Positions 4,854 through 64,000 of a DNA stretch of 64,000 nucleotides are shown piece after piece (position 1 is the stretch's first letter; the number at the start of each line of letters is the position of its first letter). A model generated the notes under the pieces. The model did not search any database and was not told where the DNA came from. It saw only the letters and a program-made list of their open reading frames with translations. Origin of the DNA: an uncultured Gammaproteobacteria bacterium (lineage in GTDB: Bacteria; Patescibacteriota; Microgenomatia; UBA10105; UBA927). The position numbers and the translations under genes are program-made. The stretch is taken from assembly GCA_964553825.1 (NCBI GenBank), contig CAZKLT010000001.1:51423-115422 (forward strand), written 5' to 3'.

Positions 4854-7202
4854 ATGCAGGATCAATTACTTGATGGTGTTTATAGACTTGAAGTAATAGG
4901 AATAAGCGTTTTGCTCATGCTGTTTTTTTTGGGCGGGCTTTTTTTGGTGGGCTATATTCTGTTTCTTATGTGGAAATACAGAAACAGGGAAGAACACTCG
5001 CTTGAGACGGTGCTTCTTCAGATTGCCGTGCCCCGCGATAACGAAATTAAGATTGACGCCGCAGAACAGATGTTTTCAAGTCTTCACAGCATCGCACATG
5101 GAGATTTTTGGTCCTTTCTCAAGCCGCAGGAGCATTTGTCCTTTGAGATCGTGGCGCGGCCGGAAGACATTCGATTTTATGTTGCGGTCCCCAAGAAGCT
5201 CACCGACCTCGTCGAGAAGCAAATTCATGGAGCATATCCGGGAGCAGACATTCGGCAGGTAGAGGAATATGCGCTCTTTTCTGAGACCGGTAAAGTGGCT
5301 TTTGCCGCATTGTGTCTCGGAGGCGCGGATTATCAGCCGCTTCGTGTTTTTCGTGATCTTCCCACCGATCCGTTGTCTTCCATAACATCCGTTTTGGCCA
5401 AAATGCGTCCCGGGGAAGCTGCCGTTGTTCAGATATTGGTTCAGCCGGCAAATGATAAATGGCGGGGGCTTGGCAGATCATATATATCGAAAGTAAAGAA
5501 AAATGAAGCAAACCCCGATAAGGCAAGCTTTTCCGTAGATCCCAAGACACTGGAAGCCATTGAGCAGAAGGTAAGTAAGCCAGGATTTAACACCGTTATT
5601 CGGTGTGTGGTGTCGGCGGAAACGAAAGAAAACGCGCAGATGCATCTGGATAATCTATTGACTAGTTTCAGCCAGTTCTCATCCGACCATAATCACTTTA
5701 CGAAAGTAAAAATGCCATTCAAGCAGTTGTTTATGATGGACTTCATTTATCGGTATTTTCCGATTATGAATGTACCGCTTTTTCGCCAATTCAGCGTCAT
5801 GAACAGTGATGAGTTGGCAAGCGTATTTCATCTCCCGAATAAATCAATCGAAACTGCGCATATTTACTGGCTGAATGCAAAGCGGGCACCGGCACCCTCG
5901 CAAATTCCCATGAGCGGTCTGTATTTGGGTAAGTCCCGGTACCGTGGTGTAGAGCGGCCGATTTTCATTGGTGAGGATGACAGAAGAAGGCATATGTACG
6001 TCATCGGGAAAACAGGCACCGGCAAATCACAGTTATTAGAAGAAATGATTATTCAGGATATCAATGAAGGAAAGGGGATCGCCGTTGTCGATCCTCATGG
6101 TGATCTTATTGATGGTATCCTTGCGCGCATGCCCGCGTCCCGCGCAGAAGACGTAATTTATTTTGACCCGTCTGACCTTGAGCGGCCGATGGGGCTCAAC
6201 ATGCTTGAAGCCAAAACAGAAGAGCAAAAACATTTCGTGGTTACCTCCATTGTCGGTCTTATGTATAAGCTGTATGACCCGATGAAAACCGGTATCATCG
6301 GGCCCCGATTCGAACACGCGATTCGAAACGCCATGTTAACGGTTATGGTGGAGCCAGGCAACACGTTTGTGGAAGTAGTGCGTGTGTTAACGGACAGCGC
6401 ATTTGTGCAGGAGCTTTTGCCGAAGCTGCAGGATCCGATTATCCGTCGGTATTGGACTGATCAGATTGCGCAGACAGCTGACTTTCATAAATCTGAGGTG
6501 CTTGATTATATCGTTTCCAAATTCGGCCGATTTGTCACCAATAAACTCATGCGTAATATCATCGGCCAATCCCAATCGTCATTTGATTTCCGCAAAGTAA
6601 TGGATGACGGGAAAATTTTACTGGTCAATCTTGCCAAGGGAAAAATTGGGGAAGAGAACAGTAACTTCCTGGGACTTATTCTGGTGCCGCGCATTCTTAT
6701 ATCCGCTATGAGTCGTCAGGAAATTCCGGAAAGTCAGCGCCGAGATTTCTACTTGTATGTCGATGAATTTCAGAACTTTGCGACACCCGATTTCGCACAA
6801 ATTCTTTCAGAAGCCAGAAAATACCGCCTCAACCTTATCGTAGCGAATCAATTCATCGGTCAAATGGAAGAAGAGGTGAAAAACGCCGTGTTTGGGAATG
6901 TCGGAACCGTTGTTTCGTTCCGCGTTGGTGTTACCGATGCCAACTATCTCCAGCATGAATTCCAGCCGACGTTTAATGAAGCAGATCTTATCAATATCGA
7001 CAAATTCAATGCTTATATAAAGACCAGCGTCAGAAATGAACCGGTTAAACCATTTAGCATGGACTTAACGAAAGACATGACGAAAGTAAATGCTGCAAAA
7101 AATCCAAAAGTGTCCGAGGCAATCATCCAATTATCGCGATTGAAATTCGGCCGATCAAGAGAATTGGTCGAGGCAGAGATTGCACATCGTGCGCGATTGT
7201 AA
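4854..7202 (+). CDS. Type IV secretion coupling protein-like ATPase (VirD4/TraG/TraD family), membrane-anchored
   Basis: N-terminal transmembrane helix pair. Walker A IGKTGTGKS. C-terminal block YVDEFQNFATPDF...RKYRLNLIVANQFIGQ...FGNVGTVVSFRV resembles the TraG-D_C / TrwB C-terminal region (DEF Walker B, Q-rich sensor). Confidence 0.6.
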   Translation: MQDQLLDGVYRLEVIGISVLLMLFFLGGLFLVGYILFLMWKYRNREEHSLETVLLQIAVPRDNEIKIDAAEQMFSSLHSIAHGDFWSFLKPQEHLSFEIVARPEDIRFYVAVPKKLTDLVEKQIHGAYPGADIRQVEEYALFSETGKVAFAALCLGGADYQPLRVFRDLPTDPLSSITSVLAKMRPGEAAVVQILVQPANDKWRGLGRSYISKVKKNEANPDKASFSVDPKTLEAIEQKVSKPGFNTVIRCVVSAETKENAQMHLDNLLTSFSQFSSDHNHFTKVKMPFKQLFMMDFIYRYFPIMNVPLFRQFSVMNSDELASVFHLPNKSIETAHIYWLNAKRAPAPSQIPMSGLYLGKSRYRGVERPIFIGEDDRRRHMYVIGKTGTGKSQLLEEMIIQDINEGKGIAVVDPHGDLIDGILARMPASRAEDVIYFDPSDLERPMGLNMLEAKTEEQKHFVVTSIVGLMYKLYDPMKTGIIGPRFEHAIRNAMLTVMVEPGNTFVEVVRVLTDSAFVQELLPKLQDPIIRRYWTDQIAQTADFHKSEVLDYIVSKFGRFVTNKLMRNIIGQSQSSFDFRKVMDDGKILLVNLAKGKIGEENSNFLGLILVPRILISAMSRQEIPESQRRDFYLYVDEFQNFATPDFAQILSEARKYRLNLIVANQFIGQMEEEVKNAVFGNVGTVVSFRVGVTDANYLQHEFQPTFNEADLINIDKFNAYIKTSVRNEPVKPFSMDLTKDMTKVNAAKNPKVSEAIIQLSRLKFGRSRELVEAEIAHRARL

Positions 7203-15310: not shown

Positions 15311-15337
15311 ATAGCACTCATCGTAAAAGAGTGATAA
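15311..15337 (+). promoter_or_regulatory. CIRCE-like inverted repeat (HrcA operator) upstream of groES
   Basis: TAGCACTC-N9-GAGTGATAA versus consensus TTAGCACTC-N9-GAGTGCTAA. Sits 34 nt upstream of the groES ATG, with RBS AAGGAGGG following. Confidence 0.7.
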
Positions 15338-15670: not shown

Positions 15671-17332
<1,662 letters not shown>

Positions 17333-51201: not shown

Positions 51202-51238
51202 TTGACAGGTGTTAGCACTCAATGTATATTATTGCTAA
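51202..51238 (+). promoter_or_regulatory. sigma70-like promoter (TTGACA-17-TATATT) overlapping a CIRCE operator upstream of hrcA
   Basis: TTGACA at 51202-51207, a 17 nt spacer, TATATT at 51225-51230. CIRCE TTAGCACTC-N9-TATTGCTAA at 51212-51238 has its left half perfect and its right half degenerate. Confidence 0.6.
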
Positions 51239-56608: not shown

Positions 56609-58087
56609 ATGAACAAGCAGGAAAAACAGTCTTCTTTGCAGACTCGGCCGCCAATCGTTGCGGTTCTCGGGCACGTTGATCACGGAAAAACCTCTCTCCT
56701 TGATACCATTCGCCAGGCAGACGTCGCCTCCCGCGAGCACGGGGGCATCACCCAACATATAGGTGCGTATCAGATTGTCGTTGATGGAAAGCCGATTACC
56801 TTCATTGATACTCCCGGTCATGAGGCTTTCGCAAAAATGCGGTCCCGGGGCGCTACAGTGGCTGACATCGTCCTTCTTGTCGTTGCGGCGGATGATAGCG
56901 TGAAACCGCAAACACAAGAATCTATCGCGCAGATAAAAAGCGCCGGAGTAAGTCTTATTGTGGTGGTGAATAAAATTGATCTTCCCGGTGCCAATGCTGA
57001 ACGCGTAAAAAAGGATTTAGCCCGTGAAGGGGTTCAGGTGGAGGGATTCGGAGGAGATGTGCCCATTGCGCTTGTATCTGCAAAAGCAAAAACGGGCATA
57101 AAAGAACTTCTGGAGCTTATTCTTCTTGTCGCACAGATGAAGGAGCTTCAGGCGGATGCCAACGGTCCTTTTGAAGCGATTGTGATAGAAACGAGAGTAG
57201 ATAAAGGAAAGGGACTGGTCGCTTCTATCGTCGTGAAAAATGGAATGCTTCGAGGAGGGATGAATATTTTTGAAGATGCACGGCAGGTGGCCCGGGTGCG
57301 GGCAATGTTTGATGAGCACGGAAAAGGTGTTGTCGAAGCATTGCCGGCTCGTCCGGTGGAAGTGCTAGGGTTTACAACCCTCCCGTCAGTCGGTGGCATT
57401 CTCAAAGATGTGCCTCAGAAACCGGTTGTTGAAGCGGGAACCGAAGTGAAGCCGGATGCCGGTGCACTTATGGGCCTTCCTGATTGGCTTAAACCGGTAG
57501 CCGAACAGGAAAAAGAAAAGCTCAACATCGTTTTGAAGGCTGATACGGCAGGATCACTCGAGGCAATCGTCGCTGCCCTGCCTGACCGGATTCGGGTAGT
57601 CAGTAGCAGCGTCGGTGACATTAGCGAGGCGGATGTGCTTCTGGCGCGAGGCTCTAAGGCGTTTGTCATTGGATTTGCCGTAAAGTGTCCGGCGAATGTG
57701 GCGAAACTCGCCCAGACAGAAAAGGTGGTCCATAGAACCTATAACATAATTTATGAGCTTATTGATGAATTGACGGAAGTGGTAAGCGGCATTAAGGAAG
57801 TACTGACTTCCGAACGGGAACTCGGGACAGGACTTATCATTGCCCAGTTTCCGTATGAAAAGTCACGTATCGCCGGCACAAAGGTTCAGTCAGGACGTCT
57901 TGCCCGCGGGGATATGGTGAAAATAGTCCGCGCTGAAGTTGAAATCGGTCGTGCTAAGATCAAATCGATCCGAAAAGGTAAAGAAGAAGTGACCAAAGTG
58001 GAAGAGGGGACGGAGTGCGGAATTCTCCTGGACCGCGAAGTTGCGTTTGAGGTAAATGATGGTATAATTGCCGTCACTACAGGCTAA
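56609..58087 (+). CDS. infB: Translation initiation factor IF-2, short form (G-domain onward, 492 aa)
   Basis: PPIVAVLGHVDHGKTSLLD, DTPGHEAF, NKID. The long N-terminal domains of canonical bacterial IF2 are absent. Confidence 0.9.
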   Translation: MNKQEKQSSLQTRPPIVAVLGHVDHGKTSLLDTIRQADVASREHGGITQHIGAYQIVVDGKPITFIDTPGHEAFAKMRSRGATVADIVLLVVAADDSVKPQTQESIAQIKSAGVSLIVVVNKIDLPGANAERVKKDLAREGVQVEGFGGDVPIALVSAKAKTGIKELLELILLVAQMKELQADANGPFEAIVIETRVDKGKGLVASIVVKNGMLRGGMNIFEDARQVARVRAMFDEHGKGVVEALPARPVEVLGFTTLPSVGGILKDVPQKPVVEAGTEVKPDAGALMGLPDWLKPVAEQEKEKLNIVLKADTAGSLEAIVAALPDRIRVVSSSVGDISEADVLLARGSKAFVIGFAVKCPANVAKLAQTEKVVHRTYNIIYELIDELTEVVSGIKEVLTSERELGTGLIIAQFPYEKSRIAGTKVQSGRLARGDMVKIVRAEVEIGRAKIKSIRKGKEEVTKVEEGTECGILLDREVAFEVNDGIIAVTTG

Positions 58088-58090
58088 CTT

Positions 58091-59014
58091 ATGGACTTTG
58101 CGAATGACATACAAAAGGTGAAGGAGCTTCTGGATAAGTCCCAGGATATCCTCATTGTTACCCATGAGCGACCCACGGCTGATAGTGTGGGAAGCGCGCT
58201 TGCGCTTTATTTGGCGTTGGCGAACATGGGTAAACGGGTTACCATTGCGTGTCCGGACCCTATGATCGTGGAACATTCCAGTTTCGTAGGTGCCAATAAA
58301 TTCATAACGACACTCGGAAAGAAAAATTTTGTCATTTCTCTTGATTATGTTGATGGCTCCATTGAGAAGGTAAGCTATAACATCGAGGGCAACAAATTTA
58401 ATTTGGTTATTGAGCCGCGGGTTGGATTTGATGTGTTTTCGCCCGACAAAGTGCATTACGCGTATGCCGGAAGCAATGCTCAGCTTATTTTTACTGTGGA
58501 CACCATTCATCTCGGCGGTCTGAAAAAACTGTTTGACGATGATAAGGATATGTATGCGACGAAACCCGTGGTGAATCTCGACCGTCATCCGAACAACGCA
58601 CATTACGGACACACCAATATGATCGATGCTGGGGCATCGTCAACAGCTGAAATTGTTTACACGCTTCTTGACGGAATTGCCGCTCCCATAACTGAAGATA
58701 TCGCGACGAATCTTTTAAATGCGGTGTATGGGGCAACCAATAATTTTCAGAATCCGAATGTAGGCGCTGGCGCATTTGCATTGGCAGCTGCGGCATTAAA
58801 TGCCGGCGGTAAACGTTTCACCCGTACGGTCGTTAAAGAGGAAATTGTGCCACAGCCCGTACAGGAAACGCCCGTGGACATGCCGGTGAAACCAGAAGTT
58901 CGTGCGCAGTCTTCCGTCGGTGCGCAGCCGCCGTCCGCCGTAGATGCATCAAAAACAAAAGCTCCTCCTGACTGGCTCAAGCCGAAAATATTTAAGAGTT
59001 CGCACCTCTCATAA
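58091..59014 (+). CDS. DHH-family phosphoesterase (NrnA-like oligoribonuclease/pAp phosphatase)
   Basis: ILIVTHERPTADSVGSALAL, DRHPNN and a GGH-like region resemble the DHH/DHHA1 family. Sits at the position rbfA/truB occupy in other bacteria. Confidence 0.7.
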   Translation: MDFANDIQKVKELLDKSQDILIVTHERPTADSVGSALALYLALANMGKRVTIACPDPMIVEHSSFVGANKFITTLGKKNFVISLDYVDGSIEKVSYNIEGNKFNLVIEPRVGFDVFSPDKVHYAYAGSNAQLIFTVDTIHLGGLKKLFDDDKDMYATKPVVNLDRHPNNAHYGHTNMIDAGASSTAEIVYTLLDGIAAPITEDIATNLLNAVYGATNNFQNPNVGAGAFALAAAALNAGGKRFTRTVVKEEIVPQPVQETPVDMPVKPEVRAQSSVGAQPPSAVDASKTKAPPDWLKPKIFKSSHLS

Positions 59015-59096: not shown

Positions 59097-59501
59097 ATGG
59101 CAAAAGCTAAAACGACAAAAAAAGCCTCGGTAAAAGAAACGGAAGTAAAAAAATCAGCGAAAGCTGCAAAAGCCACAAAGCCTGCAAAGACGACGAAGGC
59201 CGCCAAAACGTCGAAAGTTGTGGAAGCAATGCTCGCCGCACCCAGTGAAGAGAAAAAAGAAGTGATCTCCCAATATCAGGTGAAAGATGGAGACACGGGG
59301 AGTCCCGAGGTCCAAGTCGCACTACTTACCAAACGTATTGAAAAACTGGTTTCACATCTGAAGACGAATCCTGCGGATAATCACTCACGAAGAGGGCTTC
59401 TGGGGATTGTCAGCAAAAGACGACGTCTTCTTAACTATCTGGAAAAGAAAGACACGAAACGATACAAGGGCATAACCCAGAAATTAGGCTTAGGTAAGTA
59501 A
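59097..59501 (+). CDS. rpsO: 30S ribosomal protein S15 with ~45-aa Lys/Ala-rich N-terminal extension
   Basis: C-terminal 89 aa ([19 protein letters not shown]...HSRRGLL...[11 protein letters not shown]) is canonical S15. The N-terminus [39 protein letters not shown] is a histone-H1-like tail. Confidence 0.85.
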
Positions 59502-59620: not shown

Positions 59621-61807
59621 ATGAAAAAACAATCCCTGGTGACGAAGTCACTTGAATTAAGTGGACGAACGCTGACGCTGGAAGTTGGCCGATTTGCAGA
59701 GCAGGCAAATGCCGCCGTGCTTGCCCGTTATGGGGACACCATGGTATTGGCAACAGCCGTAGCGTCTTCAAAGGAAACGACATTGGATTATTTCCCGTTA
59801 TCTGTGGAATACGTGGAACGGCTGTATGCCGGCGGACGCATTAAGGGATCCCGATGGGTGAAACGTGAAGGAAGACCCACTGATGATGCGGTTTTGGCTG
59901 GACGTGTTATTGATCGGTCAATCCGCCCGTTGTTCCCCAAGACATACAAACATGACGTACAGGTGATTATCACTGTTCTGTCTGTTGACGGAGTCAATGA
60001 TCCGGATGTGCTCGGATTGGTGGCGACATCAGCAGCGTTGGCCATATCATCCATTCCCTGGAAAGGTCCGGTGGCAGCGGTTCGCATGGGATACGTAAAA
60101 AATGCCAATGGAGATGGCGGCTCATATGTCGTCAATCCGACGATTTCGGAGCAGGAAATGAGTGATTTTGATTTTGTCGTTTCTTCGACAAAAGAAAAAG
60201 TTCTCATGCTTGAAGGTGGTTTCTGTGAGACGTCAGATGACGTGACCTATGAATCCATCCTGGTCGCCAAGGAAGCCAACGGAAAGATTATTAAACTTAT
60301 AGAGGATCTTGTTGCGGAAGTTGGCAAAACGAAAGAGGTTGCGCCGGAGCATGCGGCCGCCGATGAGCTGAAAGAGAAGATCGTCAAGGACTACAAGAAG
60401 GAAATGGAGCTTGCATTTGCAAAGAAAGCGGAAAAAGAATTTGGCGGTACTGAGGTTGCGGAGTTGGCCAAAGTAATCGCAGAAGCATATGGCACGGAAT
60501 ATACCGTTAAAGCGGTCGAAGAAGCGCTTGACGGATTATTTAAGAAGAAAGTACGGGAAAATATCCTTGAGGAAGGAAAACGTTTTGACGGTCGGAAAGT
60601 CGATGAAATTCGTTCATTGGAAGCAGCGGTTGGGATTTTACCCCGCACACATGGAAGTGCGATGTTTAAACGTGGACAAACACAGGTTTTGACTGTTGCA
60701 ACGCTTGGAACACCGTCACTGGAACAGCTCATTGAGAGTCCTGCCGGTGAAGAATCAAAGCGATACATCCATCACTACAGCATGCCTCCGTATTCGGTGG
60801 GTGAAACGGGAAGAGTCGGTACACCGAATCGGCGCGAAATCGGGCACGGTGCGTTAGCGGAGCGTGCACTTTTGGCGGTTATACCGTCAGAAACAGAATT
60901 TCCTTATACCATCCGATTGGTAAGCGAAGTGATGTCCAGCAATGGGTCGACCTCAATGGCTTCTACTTGTGGTTCGACGCTTGCGCTTATGGACGCCGGT
61001 GTTCCTATTCGGGAGCCTGTTGCCGGTATTTCGATCGGACTTATGACCGGACCGAAGAAGTATGTCCTTCTGACGGATATTTTGGGTATCGAGGATTTTG
61101 CCGGGGATATGGATTTTAAAGTGGCCGGAACGAAAAATGGCATAACCGCCATTCAGCTGGATGTCAAGATTGACGGACTGACGGATGAAATGATGAAGGA
61201 AACGTTCGTTCGAGCTCGGGAGGCACGGATGAAGATTCTTGAGAAAATGCTTTCAGTCATCCCATCATCCCGTGCATCATTGTCACAATATGCACCCAAG
61301 GTGCAGGTGGTGAAGATTCCGACCGAGAAAATTGGCGAAGTCATCGGTCCCGGAGGGAAGATGATCCGCAATATCATGGCATCGACGACGACAACAGTCG
61401 ACGTCGACGATGACGGATCAGTCGTTATTTCAGGAATGGACGACACTGCCGTCAAGAAAGCGGTTGATTGGGTGACCGGTCTTACCCGCGATGTGCAGGT
61501 TGGTGAAGAATTTGAGGGCGAAGTGAAACGGATACTCCCGTTCGGAGCGTTTGTTGAGATATTGCCCGGAAAAGAAGGCATGGTGCATGTTTCACAGATG
61601 TCGACAGAATATGTCAGCAAGCCAGAAGATGTGGTGAGTCTCGGACAGAAAGTGAAAGTCCGAGTCATGGAAATTGATGAACAGCGACGGGTGAACCTCT
61701 CCATGCTTTTCGGAGAGGACGCAAAAAAGGCACCGCCCCGTGAGCGCCGTGAAGGCGCCCCGGGTGGCGGCAGGCGTCCCTTCGACCGCGGACGAAGACG
61801 ATTTTAG
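59621..61807 (+). CDS. pnp: Polyribonucleotide nucleotidyltransferase (PNPase)
   Basis: Two RNase PH domains, KH (GPGGKMIRNI) and S1 domains. Full-length. Confidence 0.95.
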   Translation: MKKQSLVTKSLELSGRTLTLEVGRFAEQANAAVLARYGDTMVLATAVASSKETTLDYFPLSVEYVERLYAGGRIKGSRWVKREGRPTDDAVLAGRVIDRSIRPLFPKTYKHDVQVIITVLSVDGVNDPDVLGLVATSAALAISSIPWKGPVAAVRMGYVKNANGDGGSYVVNPTISEQEMSDFDFVVSSTKEKVLMLEGGFCETSDDVTYESILVAKEANGKIIKLIEDLVAEVGKTKEVAPEHAAADELKEKIVKDYKKEMELAFAKKAEKEFGGTEVAELAKVIAEAYGTEYTVKAVEEALDGLFKKKVRENILEEGKRFDGRKVDEIRSLEAAVGILPRTHGSAMFKRGQTQVLTVATLGTPSLEQLIESPAGEESKRYIHHYSMPPYSVGETGRVGTPNRREIGHGALAERALLAVIPSETEFPYTIRLVSEVMSSNGSTSMASTCGSTLALMDAGVPIREPVAGISIGLMTGPKKYVLLTDILGIEDFAGDMDFKVAGTKNGITAIQLDVKIDGLTDEMMKETFVRAREARMKILEKMLSVIPSSRASLSQYAPKVQVVKIPTEKIGEVIGPGGKMIRNIMASTTTTVDVDDDGSVVISGMDDTAVKKAVDWVTGLTRDVQVGEEFEGEVKRILPFGAFVEILPGKEGMVHVSQMSTEYVSKPEDVVSLGQKVKVRVMEIDEQRRVNLSMLFGEDAKKAPPRERREGAPGGGRRPFDRGRRRF

Positions 61808-61863: not shown

Positions 61864-62973
61864 ATGTCCAAATTGACGGATGATGTTAACATGCTTCGCA
61901 CGAAAATTGCGGATGCAAAACTCCCGCCGGATCTCGAGTCGCGTGTTTTGGGTAGCCTGGAAGAAGCTCAGAGGCTTGAGAGTGATATCACAGCGAGAGT
62001 ACATATAGAGCAGATGCTGCGATATATCGACTGGATCGTTCACCTTCCCTGGAACATGCGGACGAAAGATGAGTTGGAATTGGGTCGGGCAAAGGAAATG
62101 CTTGAAAAAAATCACTATGGCTTACAGCCGGTGAAAGAGCGTATTCTTGAATATCTTGCCGTACTGAAACTTAATTCTGATCGATGGTTGGCCGAAGAGC
62201 AGGGGAAAGCCCGATCAGCTGATGTCGGAGCGGATGCTAAATTATCTCACGCAATGCTTGCACGCCGGGCGCCTATTCTGTGTCTTGTGGGACTGGTGGG
62301 TACCGGAAAAACGACACTCGCCAAATCCATAGCCCAGGCGATGGGCCGACGGTTTGTCCGTATTCCTTTCGGAGGAATGAGTGACGCGCTTGAATTGCGC
62401 GGCCAGTCGAGGGTCAGGCCGGACGCGGAAATTGGCCTTATTCTCAAGGGAATGCGATTTGCGGGATCACGAAATCCGGTTATTCTTTTGGATGAAATTG
62501 ACCGTGTGGCCGAGCATGCCCGGGGAGATATCATGGGTGTGTTGGTTGAGCTTTTGGATCCCGAGCAAAACGCAGCGTTCACCGATCATTACCTTGATTA
62601 TCCGTTCAATTTGTCAGAAGTTCTGTTTATTGCGACGGCCAATAATACGACACATATAGCCACTGCGGTATTGGATCGTCTTGAGCCTATTCAGATGCCT
62701 TCATATACGGATGAGGAAAAGACAAAAATTGCCAAGGATTACGTATTGCCGGAGCTTATGCGTGAATCTGGCTTGACAAGTGAAAATTTGACGATCGACG
62801 AAGCAGTGTGGCCCAAATTGGTGCGTCCACTCGGATTTGATGCAGGTATTCGTAGTCTTGAGCGGGGCATAAACAGTGTTTGTCGGAAAGTTGCACGCAT
62901 GATCGTAGAGGGAAAAACAAAAGCAGTGAAAATTGATGAATCTAATATAAAGGAGTTTATTGAAAGCTATTAA
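61864..62973 (+). CDS. Lon-like AAA+ ATPase module without a protease domain (and without the long Lon N-domain)
   Basis: HYGLQPVKERILEYLAV...PILCLVGLVGTGKTTLAKSIAQAMGRRFVRIPFGG...NPVILLDEIDRV...RGD...LVELLDPEQNAAFTDHYL...ATANN...LDRLEPIQMPSYTDEEKTKIAKDY...AGIRSLER parallels the Lon A-domain block for block. The ORF stops where the S16 protease domain would begin. Confidence 0.75.
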   Translation: MSKLTDDVNMLRTKIADAKLPPDLESRVLGSLEEAQRLESDITARVHIEQMLRYIDWIVHLPWNMRTKDELELGRAKEMLEKNHYGLQPVKERILEYLAVLKLNSDRWLAEEQGKARSADVGADAKLSHAMLARRAPILCLVGLVGTGKTTLAKSIAQAMGRRFVRIPFGGMSDALELRGQSRVRPDAEIGLILKGMRFAGSRNPVILLDEIDRVAEHARGDIMGVLVELLDPEQNAAFTDHYLDYPFNLSEVLFIATANNTTHIATAVLDRLEPIQMPSYTDEEKTKIAKDYVLPELMRESGLTSENLTIDEAVWPKLVRPLGFDAGIRSLERGINSVCRKVARMIVEGKTKAVKIDESNIKEFIESY

Positions 62974-64000
62974 CCCATTTTTAAAACGTATAAAACAAAA
63001 AGGCCAGATATTTACTGGCTCATCCCAAAGCGGAAAAGAATCAATCCGCCTTATCCCCCTGGGTGGCACGGGAAACGTCACGAAAAACATGTTTGTTTAT
63101 GAGTATCGGTATGACGGTGACTTGCGGGATATTCTCATCGTCGATTGTGGTATCGGTTTTCCTGATCCGGAGATGTTTGGTGTAGATCTTGTACTTCCCG
63201 ACGTGCGGTATCTCGAAAGTAAAAAGGATAAAATCAGAGGACTCGTGTTTACGCATGGTCATGACGACCATATCGGTGGTATTGCGCATATATATCCGAA
63301 ATTAGGAAAAGTTCCCATGTGGGGAACAACGCTTACTTCAGCATTTGCCAATATTAAATTGCGCGAACGGCTGCCAAAAGTAAAAGTAACACCGGTAAAG
63401 TTTGACCAGGTTCTTCGTATAGGACCATTTATCGTATCCTTTGCCCGGGTTACGCATTCGGTTCCGGACGCAGCCAATCTCATAATCGAGACACCGATAG
63501 GTATTTTTTATCACGGAAGCGATTTTAAGTTCGATTTCGATCCGTTGGACGGAAAATTGTCTGAGCTGGATAAAATTACCCAGACGGGGAAACGTGGCGT
63601 ACTGTGTATGCTTACCGATTGTCTGGGCAGTGAGCGGCCGGGATTTACCGCATCGGAGCAGATCGTAGGACAGACGCTTGAGAAGGAGTTATCGCTTGCC
63701 AGCGGGAAGTTTATTTTTACGACACAGTCGAGTAATATTTCCCGAATTCAGCGGGCGATCGAAATAGCGCTGAAGTACGGACGGAAAATTGCGATTTTCG
63801 GACGGAGTATGGACCAAAATATCGAAGAGGCACTTAAGCTCGGATATATGCACTTTCCCAGGGAAGCAATTATTCTTGACCGGGACTTGCGGCGTGTGCC
63901 CCGGACAAAGCAATTTCTGATCGTTGCGGGCGCACAGGGACAGGAAGGGTCAGCGTTGTCACGGATAGCCAACGATGATCACAAGTTCGTGAAGCTGGAA
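62960..64000 (+). CDS. rnj: Ribonuclease J (metallo-beta-lactamase/beta-CASP), 3'-truncated by window edge; start uncertain
   Basis: IRLIPLGGTGNVTKNMFVYEY, HGHDDHIGG (HxHxDH) and later beta-CASP-like motifs. No in-frame ATG before the beta-lactamase core. A TTG at 62960 sits 4 nt after AAGGAG. Not in the ORF track because there is no stop within the window. Confidence 0.7.
   Translation, partial: MKAINPFLKRIKQKGQIFTGSSQSGKESIRLIPLGGTGNVTKNMFVYEYRYDGDLRDILIVDCGIGFPDPEMFGVDLVLPDVRYLESKKDKIRGLVFTHGHDDHIGGIAHIYPKLGKVPMWGTTLTSAFANIKLRERLPKVKVTPVKFDQVLRIGPFIVSFARVTHSVPDAANLIIETPIGIFYHGSDFKFDFDPLDGKLSELDKITQTGKRGVLCMLTDCLGSERPGFTASEQIVGQTLEKELSLASGKFIFTTQSSNISRIQRAIEIALKYGRKIAIFGRSMDQNIEEALKLGYMHFPREAIILDRDLRRVPRTKQFLIVAGAQGQEGSALSRIANDDHKFVKLE

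Follow-up and report, generated by a model that had tools for sequence, protein, structure and literature searches.

What does a Lon ATPase do when it is encoded without a peptidase domain? This question is raised by a gene near the end of a 64,000-nucleotide stretch of contig CAZKLT010000001.1 (positions 51,423 to 115,422), which was analysed over its whole length and is called the window below. The assembly (GCA_964553825.1) is titled as an uncultured Gammaproteobacteria bacterium, and its GTDB lineage runs through Patescibacteriota and Microgenomatia. The gene product, a protein of 369 residues, corresponds to the ATPase module of LonA and belongs to a large, strongly conserved and apparently undescribed family with the same boundaries. 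We consider it reasonably probable that it is a functional stand-alone hexameric AAA+ ATPase, derived from LonA, that remodels proteins instead of degrading them. The gene and its parts are the following:

61864..62973, + strand: gene for the protease-less Lon-type AAA+ ATPase (ATG start, 369 residues, TAA stop; stop included)
61864..62175, + strand: equivalent of the three-helix bundle (NTD-3H), residues 1-104; aligns to 3m6a 7-103 and E. coli Lon ~244-340
62176..62265, + strand: length-variable, hydrophilic, family-specific insertion, residues 105-134, between the bundle and Walker A
62290..62313, + strand: Walker A GLVGTGKT (GPPGVGKT in LonA), read from the sequence
62398..62436, + strand: pore-loop-1 segment RGQSRVRPDAEIG, opposite LonA RGHRRTYIGSMPG in an ungapped alignment
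62473..62502, + strand: Walker B NPVILLDEID (D210, E211), with D and E at 95% or more in the family and in LonA
62641..62853, + strand: sensor-1 N260 (ATANN), arginine finger R272 (LDR) and sensor-2 R330 (GIRSLER), each at 95% or more in the family and in LonA

Domain composition and extent of the family

A preliminary description had read the product as the central ATPase part of Lon, and the blocks expected of such a module are all present (GLVGTGKT, ILLDEID, RGD, LDPEQN, ATANN, LDR, SYTDEEKTKIAK and GIRSLER). With Pfam, AAA (PF00004) covers residues 139-276 and Lon_lid (PF22667) residues 301-353, and neither Lon_C (PF05362) nor LON_substr_bdg (PF02190) was found in the 369 residues. The NCBIfam model for lon, TIGR00763, matches over profile positions 252-573 of 795 with 325.5 bits, under its cutoff of 608.05, and NF008053 matches with 264.6 bits, under its cutoff of 891. 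The closest solved proteins are LonA throughout, the best by sequence being that of Bacillus subtilis (3m6a, E 1.4e-81, residues 5-366 aligned). On Escherichia coli Lon the match covers residues ~242-579, i.e. the three-helix bundle and the AAA+ module to the end of the lid. The C-terminus lies opposite residue ~579, immediately N-terminal of the peptidase domain, and this, together with the lack of PF05362, bears out the earlier statement that the product stops where the S16 domain begins. When searched with tblastn, residues 242-308 alone of the E. coli Lon N-region align to the ATPase, and neither the P-domain (585-784) nor the N-domain of E. coli Lon has a match in any frame of the 64-kb window. 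An N-domain of ~300 residues had been said to be missing. The LON N-domain is indeed gone, but the missing part amounts to about 240 residues and the three-helix bundle (~244-340) is kept.

The AlphaFold2 monomer model of the ATPase has a mean predicted local confidence (pLDDT) of 87 and a predicted template modelling score (pTM) of 0.81, with disorder limited to residues 118-134. It superposes on the ATPase modules of LonA and LONP1, with a TM-score of 0.88 against the isolated E. coli AAA+ domain (6n2i). In the N-terminal part, helices are predicted at residues 2-18, 22-40, 42-59, 73-83 and 88-117. Y54, W57 and P62/W63 correspond to Y294, W297 and the PW motif of LonA, and Y54 and W57 are retained in the family. 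The insertion at residues 105-134 is found in neither E. coli nor B. subtilis Lon; its part 118-134 has a pLDDT below 50, and its length differs widely across the wider family.

The same protease-less form is shared by a large number of relatives. A search of 5.8 billion proteins gave 120 close clusters (76-100% identity), all of 358-378 residues and none with Lon_C, for which the source names are Patescibacteria, Microgenomates and Gottesmanbacteria. In a HMMER search of representatives at 50% identity, this close clade collapses to one protein (P0121, 71% identity), and additional protease-less Lon-type proteins of 350-670 residues were found that have AAA and Lon_lid only. These diverse representatives terminate ~10 residues past the lid, and their main variation consists of low-complexity N-terminal tails. 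A profile search revealed a second large clade in Candidatus Dojkabacteria (>115 clusters, 377-632 residues), in which the sole Lon_C match is that of one aberrant sequence of 992 residues. With this one exception, the >230 homologue clusters all end at the boundary seen in the window protein. When GTDB species were scanned with one genome each, 35 further family loci and 45 LonA loci were obtained. The family loci considered here, 43 from different species, contain complete open reading frames (ORFs) of 341-511 residues with the Walker A motif GL[VAQ]G[TVI]GKT, and in none of them (0/43) was an S16 or Lon N-domain found, either in the ORF or in the fetched DNA. The scans for S16 covered the 64-kb window and up to 10 kb on each side at these 43 loci. 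All 45 LonA loci of the same scan consist of a single ORF of 780-870 residues with GPPGVGKT, RGHRRTY and both extra domains. Several of the contigs (L009, L015, L017-L019, L021, L023, L025 and others) are titled 'uncultured Gammaproteobacteria bacterium', 'Candidatus Methanoperedens sp.' or the like, yet have a gene content and order plainly like those of Microgenomates; such taxonomic labels cannot be relied upon.

The family is under strong purifying selection, a point that the preliminary description had listed for checking along with the occurrence of the same form in relatives. The proportion of non-synonymous differences (pN) for the ATPase is 0.13-0.22 and that of synonymous differences (pS) is ~0.8; synonymous sites are saturated, which left a dN/dS ratio computable for 1 of 10 pairs, and pN and pS are given instead. 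Identity between genomes is comparable for the ATPase and for the PNPase and RNase J encoded on either side of it (e.g. 83/83/83% and 76/78/71%), and the ATPase is more conserved than initiation factor 2 (IF2) or the DHH-family protein. In a neighbour-joining tree, 40 family sequences are monophyletic with respect to 46 full-length LonA sequences in 40/40 bootstraps; the LonA set includes those of metagenome-assembled genomes (MAGs) labelled Woesebacteria (L082) and Saccharibacteria (L053). We take the family to be an old, vertically inherited and monophyletic one in bacteria of the candidate phyla radiation (CPR), its named members being Microgenomates and Dojkabacteria. Full-text literature searching found no account of such a protease-free Lon family, and the curated libraries Pfam and NCBIfam have no model for it.

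Catalytic residues and pore loop 1

All catalytic residues of the ATPase (K149, D210/E211, N260, R272 and R330) are conserved at 95% or more, in the family and in LonA alike. The protein presents the features of the HCLR clade of AAA+ proteins, namely Walker A GxxGxGK[ST], Walker B hhhhDE, a polar sensor 1, a trans-acting arginine finger and a sensor-2 arginine in the lid. Among the 120 homologues, 117 of the 369 columns are invariant, and the Walker A sequence GLVGTGKT is the same in 85/85 close homologues scored by motif scan. The two prolines of the LonA Walker A (P357/P358), present in 100% of 46 LonA sequences, are replaced in the family.

Of the residues with an invariance of 90% or more in LonA, 15 have been lost in the family, and these losses are clustered. 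Eleven of them are located in or just before pore loop 1 (E388, A389, I391, H394, R395, T397, Y398 and G400 of E. coli Lon, and neighbours); the others are the Walker A Pro-Pro, P436 of pore loop 2, and Y535/T536/E538 ahead of sensor 2. Where LonA reads RGHRRT-Y-I-GSMPG, the window protein reads RGQSRV-R-P-DAEIG, with Arg185-Pro186 in place of the Tyr-Ile pincer. DAE[P/I]G replaces GSMPG family-wide, and the pore-loop-1 segment is nearly invariant in the close clade. The position of the LonA pore-loop tyrosine, which is Tyr in 100% of the 46 LonA sequences, is variable in the family. In the clade of the window protein it is R, H or Q, followed by Pro (84/84 scored sequences), and F or Y is kept in ~14/40 species-level sequences, from Dojkabacteria and some Microgenomates. 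In Yersinia pestis Lon, the polypeptide under translocation is gripped between Y398 and I399 as in a pincer, and the I399A mutant is defective in degradation with ATP hydrolysis minimally affected (PMC7239648). The word 'unfoldase', offered in the preliminary description, is not supported in view of these replacements in the clade of the window protein; 'remodeller' is the safer term, since the substrate-gripping Tyr-Ile is replaced by Arg-Pro. The family is also acidic, with a mean isoelectric point (pI) of 6.1 versus 8.0 for the AAA modules of LonA.

Possible functions and genetic context

The following scenario would account for such a protein. The ATPase would descend from LonA, with the three-helix cap, the ATPase core and the lid kept and the N-terminal substrate-recognition domain and the S16 peptidase lost. 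Most likely its subunits form a ring like that of Lon and hydrolyse ATP, to judge from the conservation of every catalytic residue and of the arginine finger, which acts in trans. The energy of ATP would be spent to remodel, hold or disassemble client proteins, without feeding a protease. Pore loop 1 has been remade as the conserved acidic DAE[P/I]G, with Arg-Pro for Tyr-Ile in the clade of the window protein, so that substrates would be engaged otherwise than by the hand-over-hand grip canonical for LonA. The architecture, the conservation with purifying selection, the clade structure, the motif changes and the gene neighbourhood are shown by the data; that the protein forms a ring, hydrolyses ATP and remodels clients is what we infer. 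Two reports on mitochondrial LONP1 show that a Lon ATPase ring can prevent aggregation or promote folding without proteolysis (PMC8368198, PMC7801493), the chaperone-like anti-aggregation activity needing ATP hydrolysis but not proteolysis (PMC8368198). LONP1 still has peptidase and N-domains, whereas the window ATPase has neither.

Several points weigh against a remodelling ATPase. A recent preprint assigns the chaperone-like activity of LonP1 to its N-domain and describes it as ATPase-independent (bioRxiv 10.64898/2026.05.06.723147); this counts against our proposal because the window ATPase has no N-domain. The proposal also assumes that the ring assembles without a peptidase domain. An aromatic residue (F or Y) is present at the tyrosine position in about a third to half of the other family members, and threading may persist in those parts of the family because the aromatic survives there. 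A partner peptidase or a co-resident LonA may also be encoded beyond the scanned DNA. Finally, no CIRCE (controlling inverted repeat of chaperone expression) operator was found before the ATPase gene, although the groE and hrcA-dnaK operons of the window have one:

15311-15337: CIRCE-like inverted repeat before groEL (15689-17332), 2 mismatches
51212-51238: CIRCE-like inverted repeat before hrcA-grpE-dnaK-dnaJ, 2 mismatches; overlaps the best promoter-like site (51202-51230)

By chance, 0.02 such repeats would be expected, and an HrcA/CIRCE heat-shock regulon thus seems to be present in this reduced genome. Heat-shock control of the ATPase gene through CIRCE was considered and rejected, as the site is lacking before the gene.

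Could the gene be a decaying lon, one half of a gene split with an adjacent ORF, or a product of frameshift or misassembly? Among CPR assemblies there are indeed Lon genes cut short by scaffold gaps, frameshifts or a nonsense codon (L089, L090, L091, L172, L173). These readings are nevertheless refuted here, and we give them practically no weight. More than 230 clusters, from assemblies made independently, and 43 loci share these ORF boundaries. The family is under strong purifying selection, has conserved motifs of its own and is monophyletic apart from LonA; and the gene is flanked by those for PNPase and RNase J, with no S16 coding potential in any frame. The ORF is intact with a good start, as had been described (ATG, 369 residues, TAA), and the peptidase has not been split off into a neighbouring ORF: tblastn gives no S16 match in any frame of the window, and rnj follows. 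Of the pair of options initially offered, a decayed lon or a stand-alone ATPase, the second therefore stands, on the grounds of recurrence, conservation, monophyly and the lack of S16. A different way to save proteolysis would be a two-component Lon, in which the ATPase ring docks on a separately encoded S16 or other self-compartmentalised peptidase, the pair acting as an ATP-dependent protease. The ATPase retains exactly the part of LonA that is seated on the peptidase ring, and the DNA inspected amounts to 64 kb here and up to 10 kb on each side elsewhere. The canonical LonA of L172, a metagenome contig (3291-5657; GPPGVGKT, RGHRRTYVGALPG) has an in-frame TAA exactly at the lid/peptidase boundary and is therefore called as a 553-residue ATPase gene plus a 218-residue S16 gene, which makes separately expressed halves conceivable; the stop may reflect an error of sequencing, a nonsense mutation of recent origin or a gene that is truly split. 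On the other hand, no S16 was found in the window or near the 43 family loci, and the pore-loop residues with which LonA translocates substrates into its chamber are lost in the family. The short 'S16-only' proteins P0401, P0387, P0484, P0450 and P0465 were rejected as trans-acting peptidases, each being a broken full-length LonA. The breaks are scaffold gaps, frameshifts or an in-frame stop, each case adjoins its own canonical ATPase half, and no free-standing S16 gene was found among the short 'S16' matches inspected from CPR-type genomes. For instance, LonA of a Roizmanbacteria MAG (L089, 4505-6795) and of a related MAG (L090, 4909-6972) is interrupted by scaffold gaps (runs of N) only, and these runs are the sole reason why the genes are annotated as short 'S16' or hypothetical proteins. 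Full-length LonA does occur in Microgenomates-labelled genomes: besides these two, L082 (Woesebacteria) has one of 838 residues. No contig was common to the family matches and the LonP-domain matches among those listed (Woesebacteria/CPR queries; proteins and metagenome contigs). We regard a two-component Lon as quite unlikely.

The remaining alternative takes its clue from the genes around the ATPase. Their order in the window is hrcA-grpE-dnaK-dnaJ-nusA-infB-DHH-rpsO-pnp-ATPase-rnj, and it is the same in two contigs of >1 Mb (L001, L002). The immediate neighbours, and a gene that intervenes at some other loci, are:

59621..61807, + strand: pnp (PNPase, 728 residues), upstream neighbour, ending 56 nt before the ATPase gene; Pfam calls on the L001/L002 orthologues
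62960..64000, + strand: 5' part of rnj (RNase J), running off the window; Pfam Lactamase_B and RNase_J_b_CASP
L012, 11082-11735: uracil-DNA glycosylase gene, with equivalents in L014, L016, L017, L020, L029, L030, L034, L036, L038 and L041

RNase J had been thought to begin within 14 nt after the ATPase gene. Instead, its start is most probably the TTG at 62960, behind a perfect AAGGAG Shine-Dalgarno sequence at 62950-62955 inside the ATPase gene, and with this probable start the two genes overlap by 14 nt. In this alternative the ATPase would be an accessory of RNA decay and a partner of PNPase and RNase J. It could, for example, help to assemble, recycle or regulate a complex that degrades RNA, or the ribonucleoproteins on which such a complex acts, and so hold the position of the ATP-dependent helicases of other degradosomes. 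In the majority of Microgenomates-type loci the ATPase gene is flanked by pnp and rnj. Of the 43 family loci, 31 have pnp upstream of the gene and on its strand, and 32 have rnj downstream, across proteins that are 44-83% identical to the window ATPase; the conserved pair of neighbours extends to proteins just 44-50% identical. The overlap with rnj, the Shine-Dalgarno sequence inside the ATPase gene and the failure to find a terminator-like site between pnp and the ATPase gene are also in line with such a link. Basic, disordered segments that might be clients are encoded next to the ATPase (the Arg/Gly-rich tail of PNPase and the Lys-rich extension of S15), and an acidic pore loop could grip them. 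However, at least 11 loci have an unrelated gene of the uracil-DNA glycosylase superfamily (PF03167, ~200 residues) that separates the ATPase gene from rnj, and because of this the neighbourhood resembles a conserved housekeeping order rather than a functional module. The neighbours are different in Dojkabacteria, where the gene adjoins that of an M23 peptidase, or L25/groESL/clpB, and the acidic character of the family (mean pI 6.1 versus 8.0) disfavours RNA binding. A connection with RNA decay by way of these two neighbours, pnp and rnj, is a weak possibility, and we consider an accessory role of this kind unlikely. The intervening gene was itself considered as a conserved partner and rejected on its uracil-DNA glycosylase identity. 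More speculative still is the idea of a new class of machine derived from Lon: a peptidase-free ring with a rebuilt, acidic pore loop gripping basic disordered tails, which in Microgenomates would be the ATP-driven part of a PNPase/RNase J RNA-decay or ribosome-turnover machinery, a role held elsewhere by a helicase. Its clients might be PNPase and the CPR ribosomal proteins, through the extensions rich in Lys or Arg that they carry. We see this as a long shot.

Some other genes of the window are worth a mention. The C-terminus of PNPase (61730-61807) is an Arg/Gly-rich tail ending in ...PPRERREGAPGGGRRPFDRGRRRF, of a type known from RNA-binding disordered regions. Ribosomal protein S15 (59097-59501; 134 residues) carries a Lys/Ala-rich N-terminal extension of ~50 residues ahead of its Pfam S15 domain (53-132). 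IF2 (56609-58087) has just 492 residues, the extended N-terminal region usual in bacterial IF2 being absent, and it is equally short in the related genomes (494-495 residues). The gene for the DHH-family phosphoesterase (58091-59014) is located between infB and rpsO, an arrangement kept in related loci; in many bacteria rbfA and truB occupy this position. A protein of 782 residues (4854-7202) weakly resembles TrwB/VirD4, the coupling proteins of type IV secretion, and the P-loop of HerA; two Dojkabacteria loci (L006, L008) have similar TraG/DUF87 genes close to that of the ATPase.

Relation to known AAA+ systems and significance

The window ATPase differs from each of the systems to which it may be compared. 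With LonA itself (TIGR00763, MEROPS S16; B. subtilis 3m6a, E. coli 6u5z/6n2i, human LONP1) it shares the three-helix bundle, the alpha/beta ATPase domain and the Lon-specific lid, at 37-46% identity over ~340 residues. It also shares the blocks Walker A and B, sensor 1, Arg finger, sensor 2, LDPEQN, RGD and YT..EK..IAK. It lacks the S16 Ser-Lys peptidase and the N-terminal LON domain (PF02190) with its long helix. The Walker A is GL[VAQ]G.GKT in the family versus GPPGVGKT in LonA, and pore loop 1 is DAE[P/I]G (with Arg-Pro here) versus Y-[IV]-G-[SA]-M-P-G. Moreover, the family has an extra variable insertion before Walker A, is acidic where LonA is basic, and forms a separate monophyletic clade. 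LonB, the archaeal and membrane form, has a transmembrane insertion in the AAA+ part, a fused S16 and no N-domain, whereas the window ATPase has no peptidase, its insertion is hydrophilic and precedes Walker A, and its best matches are LonA, not LonB. LonC, with degenerate Walker motifs and an active S16, is the opposite case, since here the motifs are intact and the peptidase is absent. The assignment to a subfamily, which had been left to be settled, is therefore LonA-derived, yet the protein departs from what defines all three.

HslU and ClpX are single-ring unfoldases of the HCLR clade without a fused peptidase, which dock on the separate HslV and ClpP. They have aromatic pore loops and dedicated docking elements, and their partners HslV and ClpP are normally encoded nearby. 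The window ATPase belongs to the same clade and likewise has no fused peptidase, but no partner was found in the scanned DNA and the pore-loop aromatic is lost in its clade. LonC, which keeps the peptidase with a degenerate ATPase, and FtsHi/Ycf2, which are protease-dead relatives of FtsH, show by precedent that an AAA+ protease can retain half of what it does and be put to a new use. FtsHi proteins retain an inactivated peptidase domain, whereas in the window ATPase this domain is deleted. Membership of an anti-phage defence system was rejected: the PADLOC models gave weak partial P-loop matches only (best TRIP13, 26.6 bits), and the context is one of core housekeeping genes.

To our knowledge, the fusion of ATPase and protease is what defines Lon, and the peptidase is kept in each of the recognised subfamilies A, B and C. 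The family described here lacks it, is clearly derived from LonA, and is one for which we found no prior description. In the source records its members are annotated as 'ATP-dependent Lon protease' or, generically, as 'AAA family ATPase'; counting them as Lon would overstate the proteolytic capacity inferred for these reduced genomes. A large family maintained by selection, with the motor alone and a rewired substrate channel, shows that the Lon ATPase can be useful by itself. It is naturally suited to testing the protease-independent 'chaperone' activity debated for Lon.

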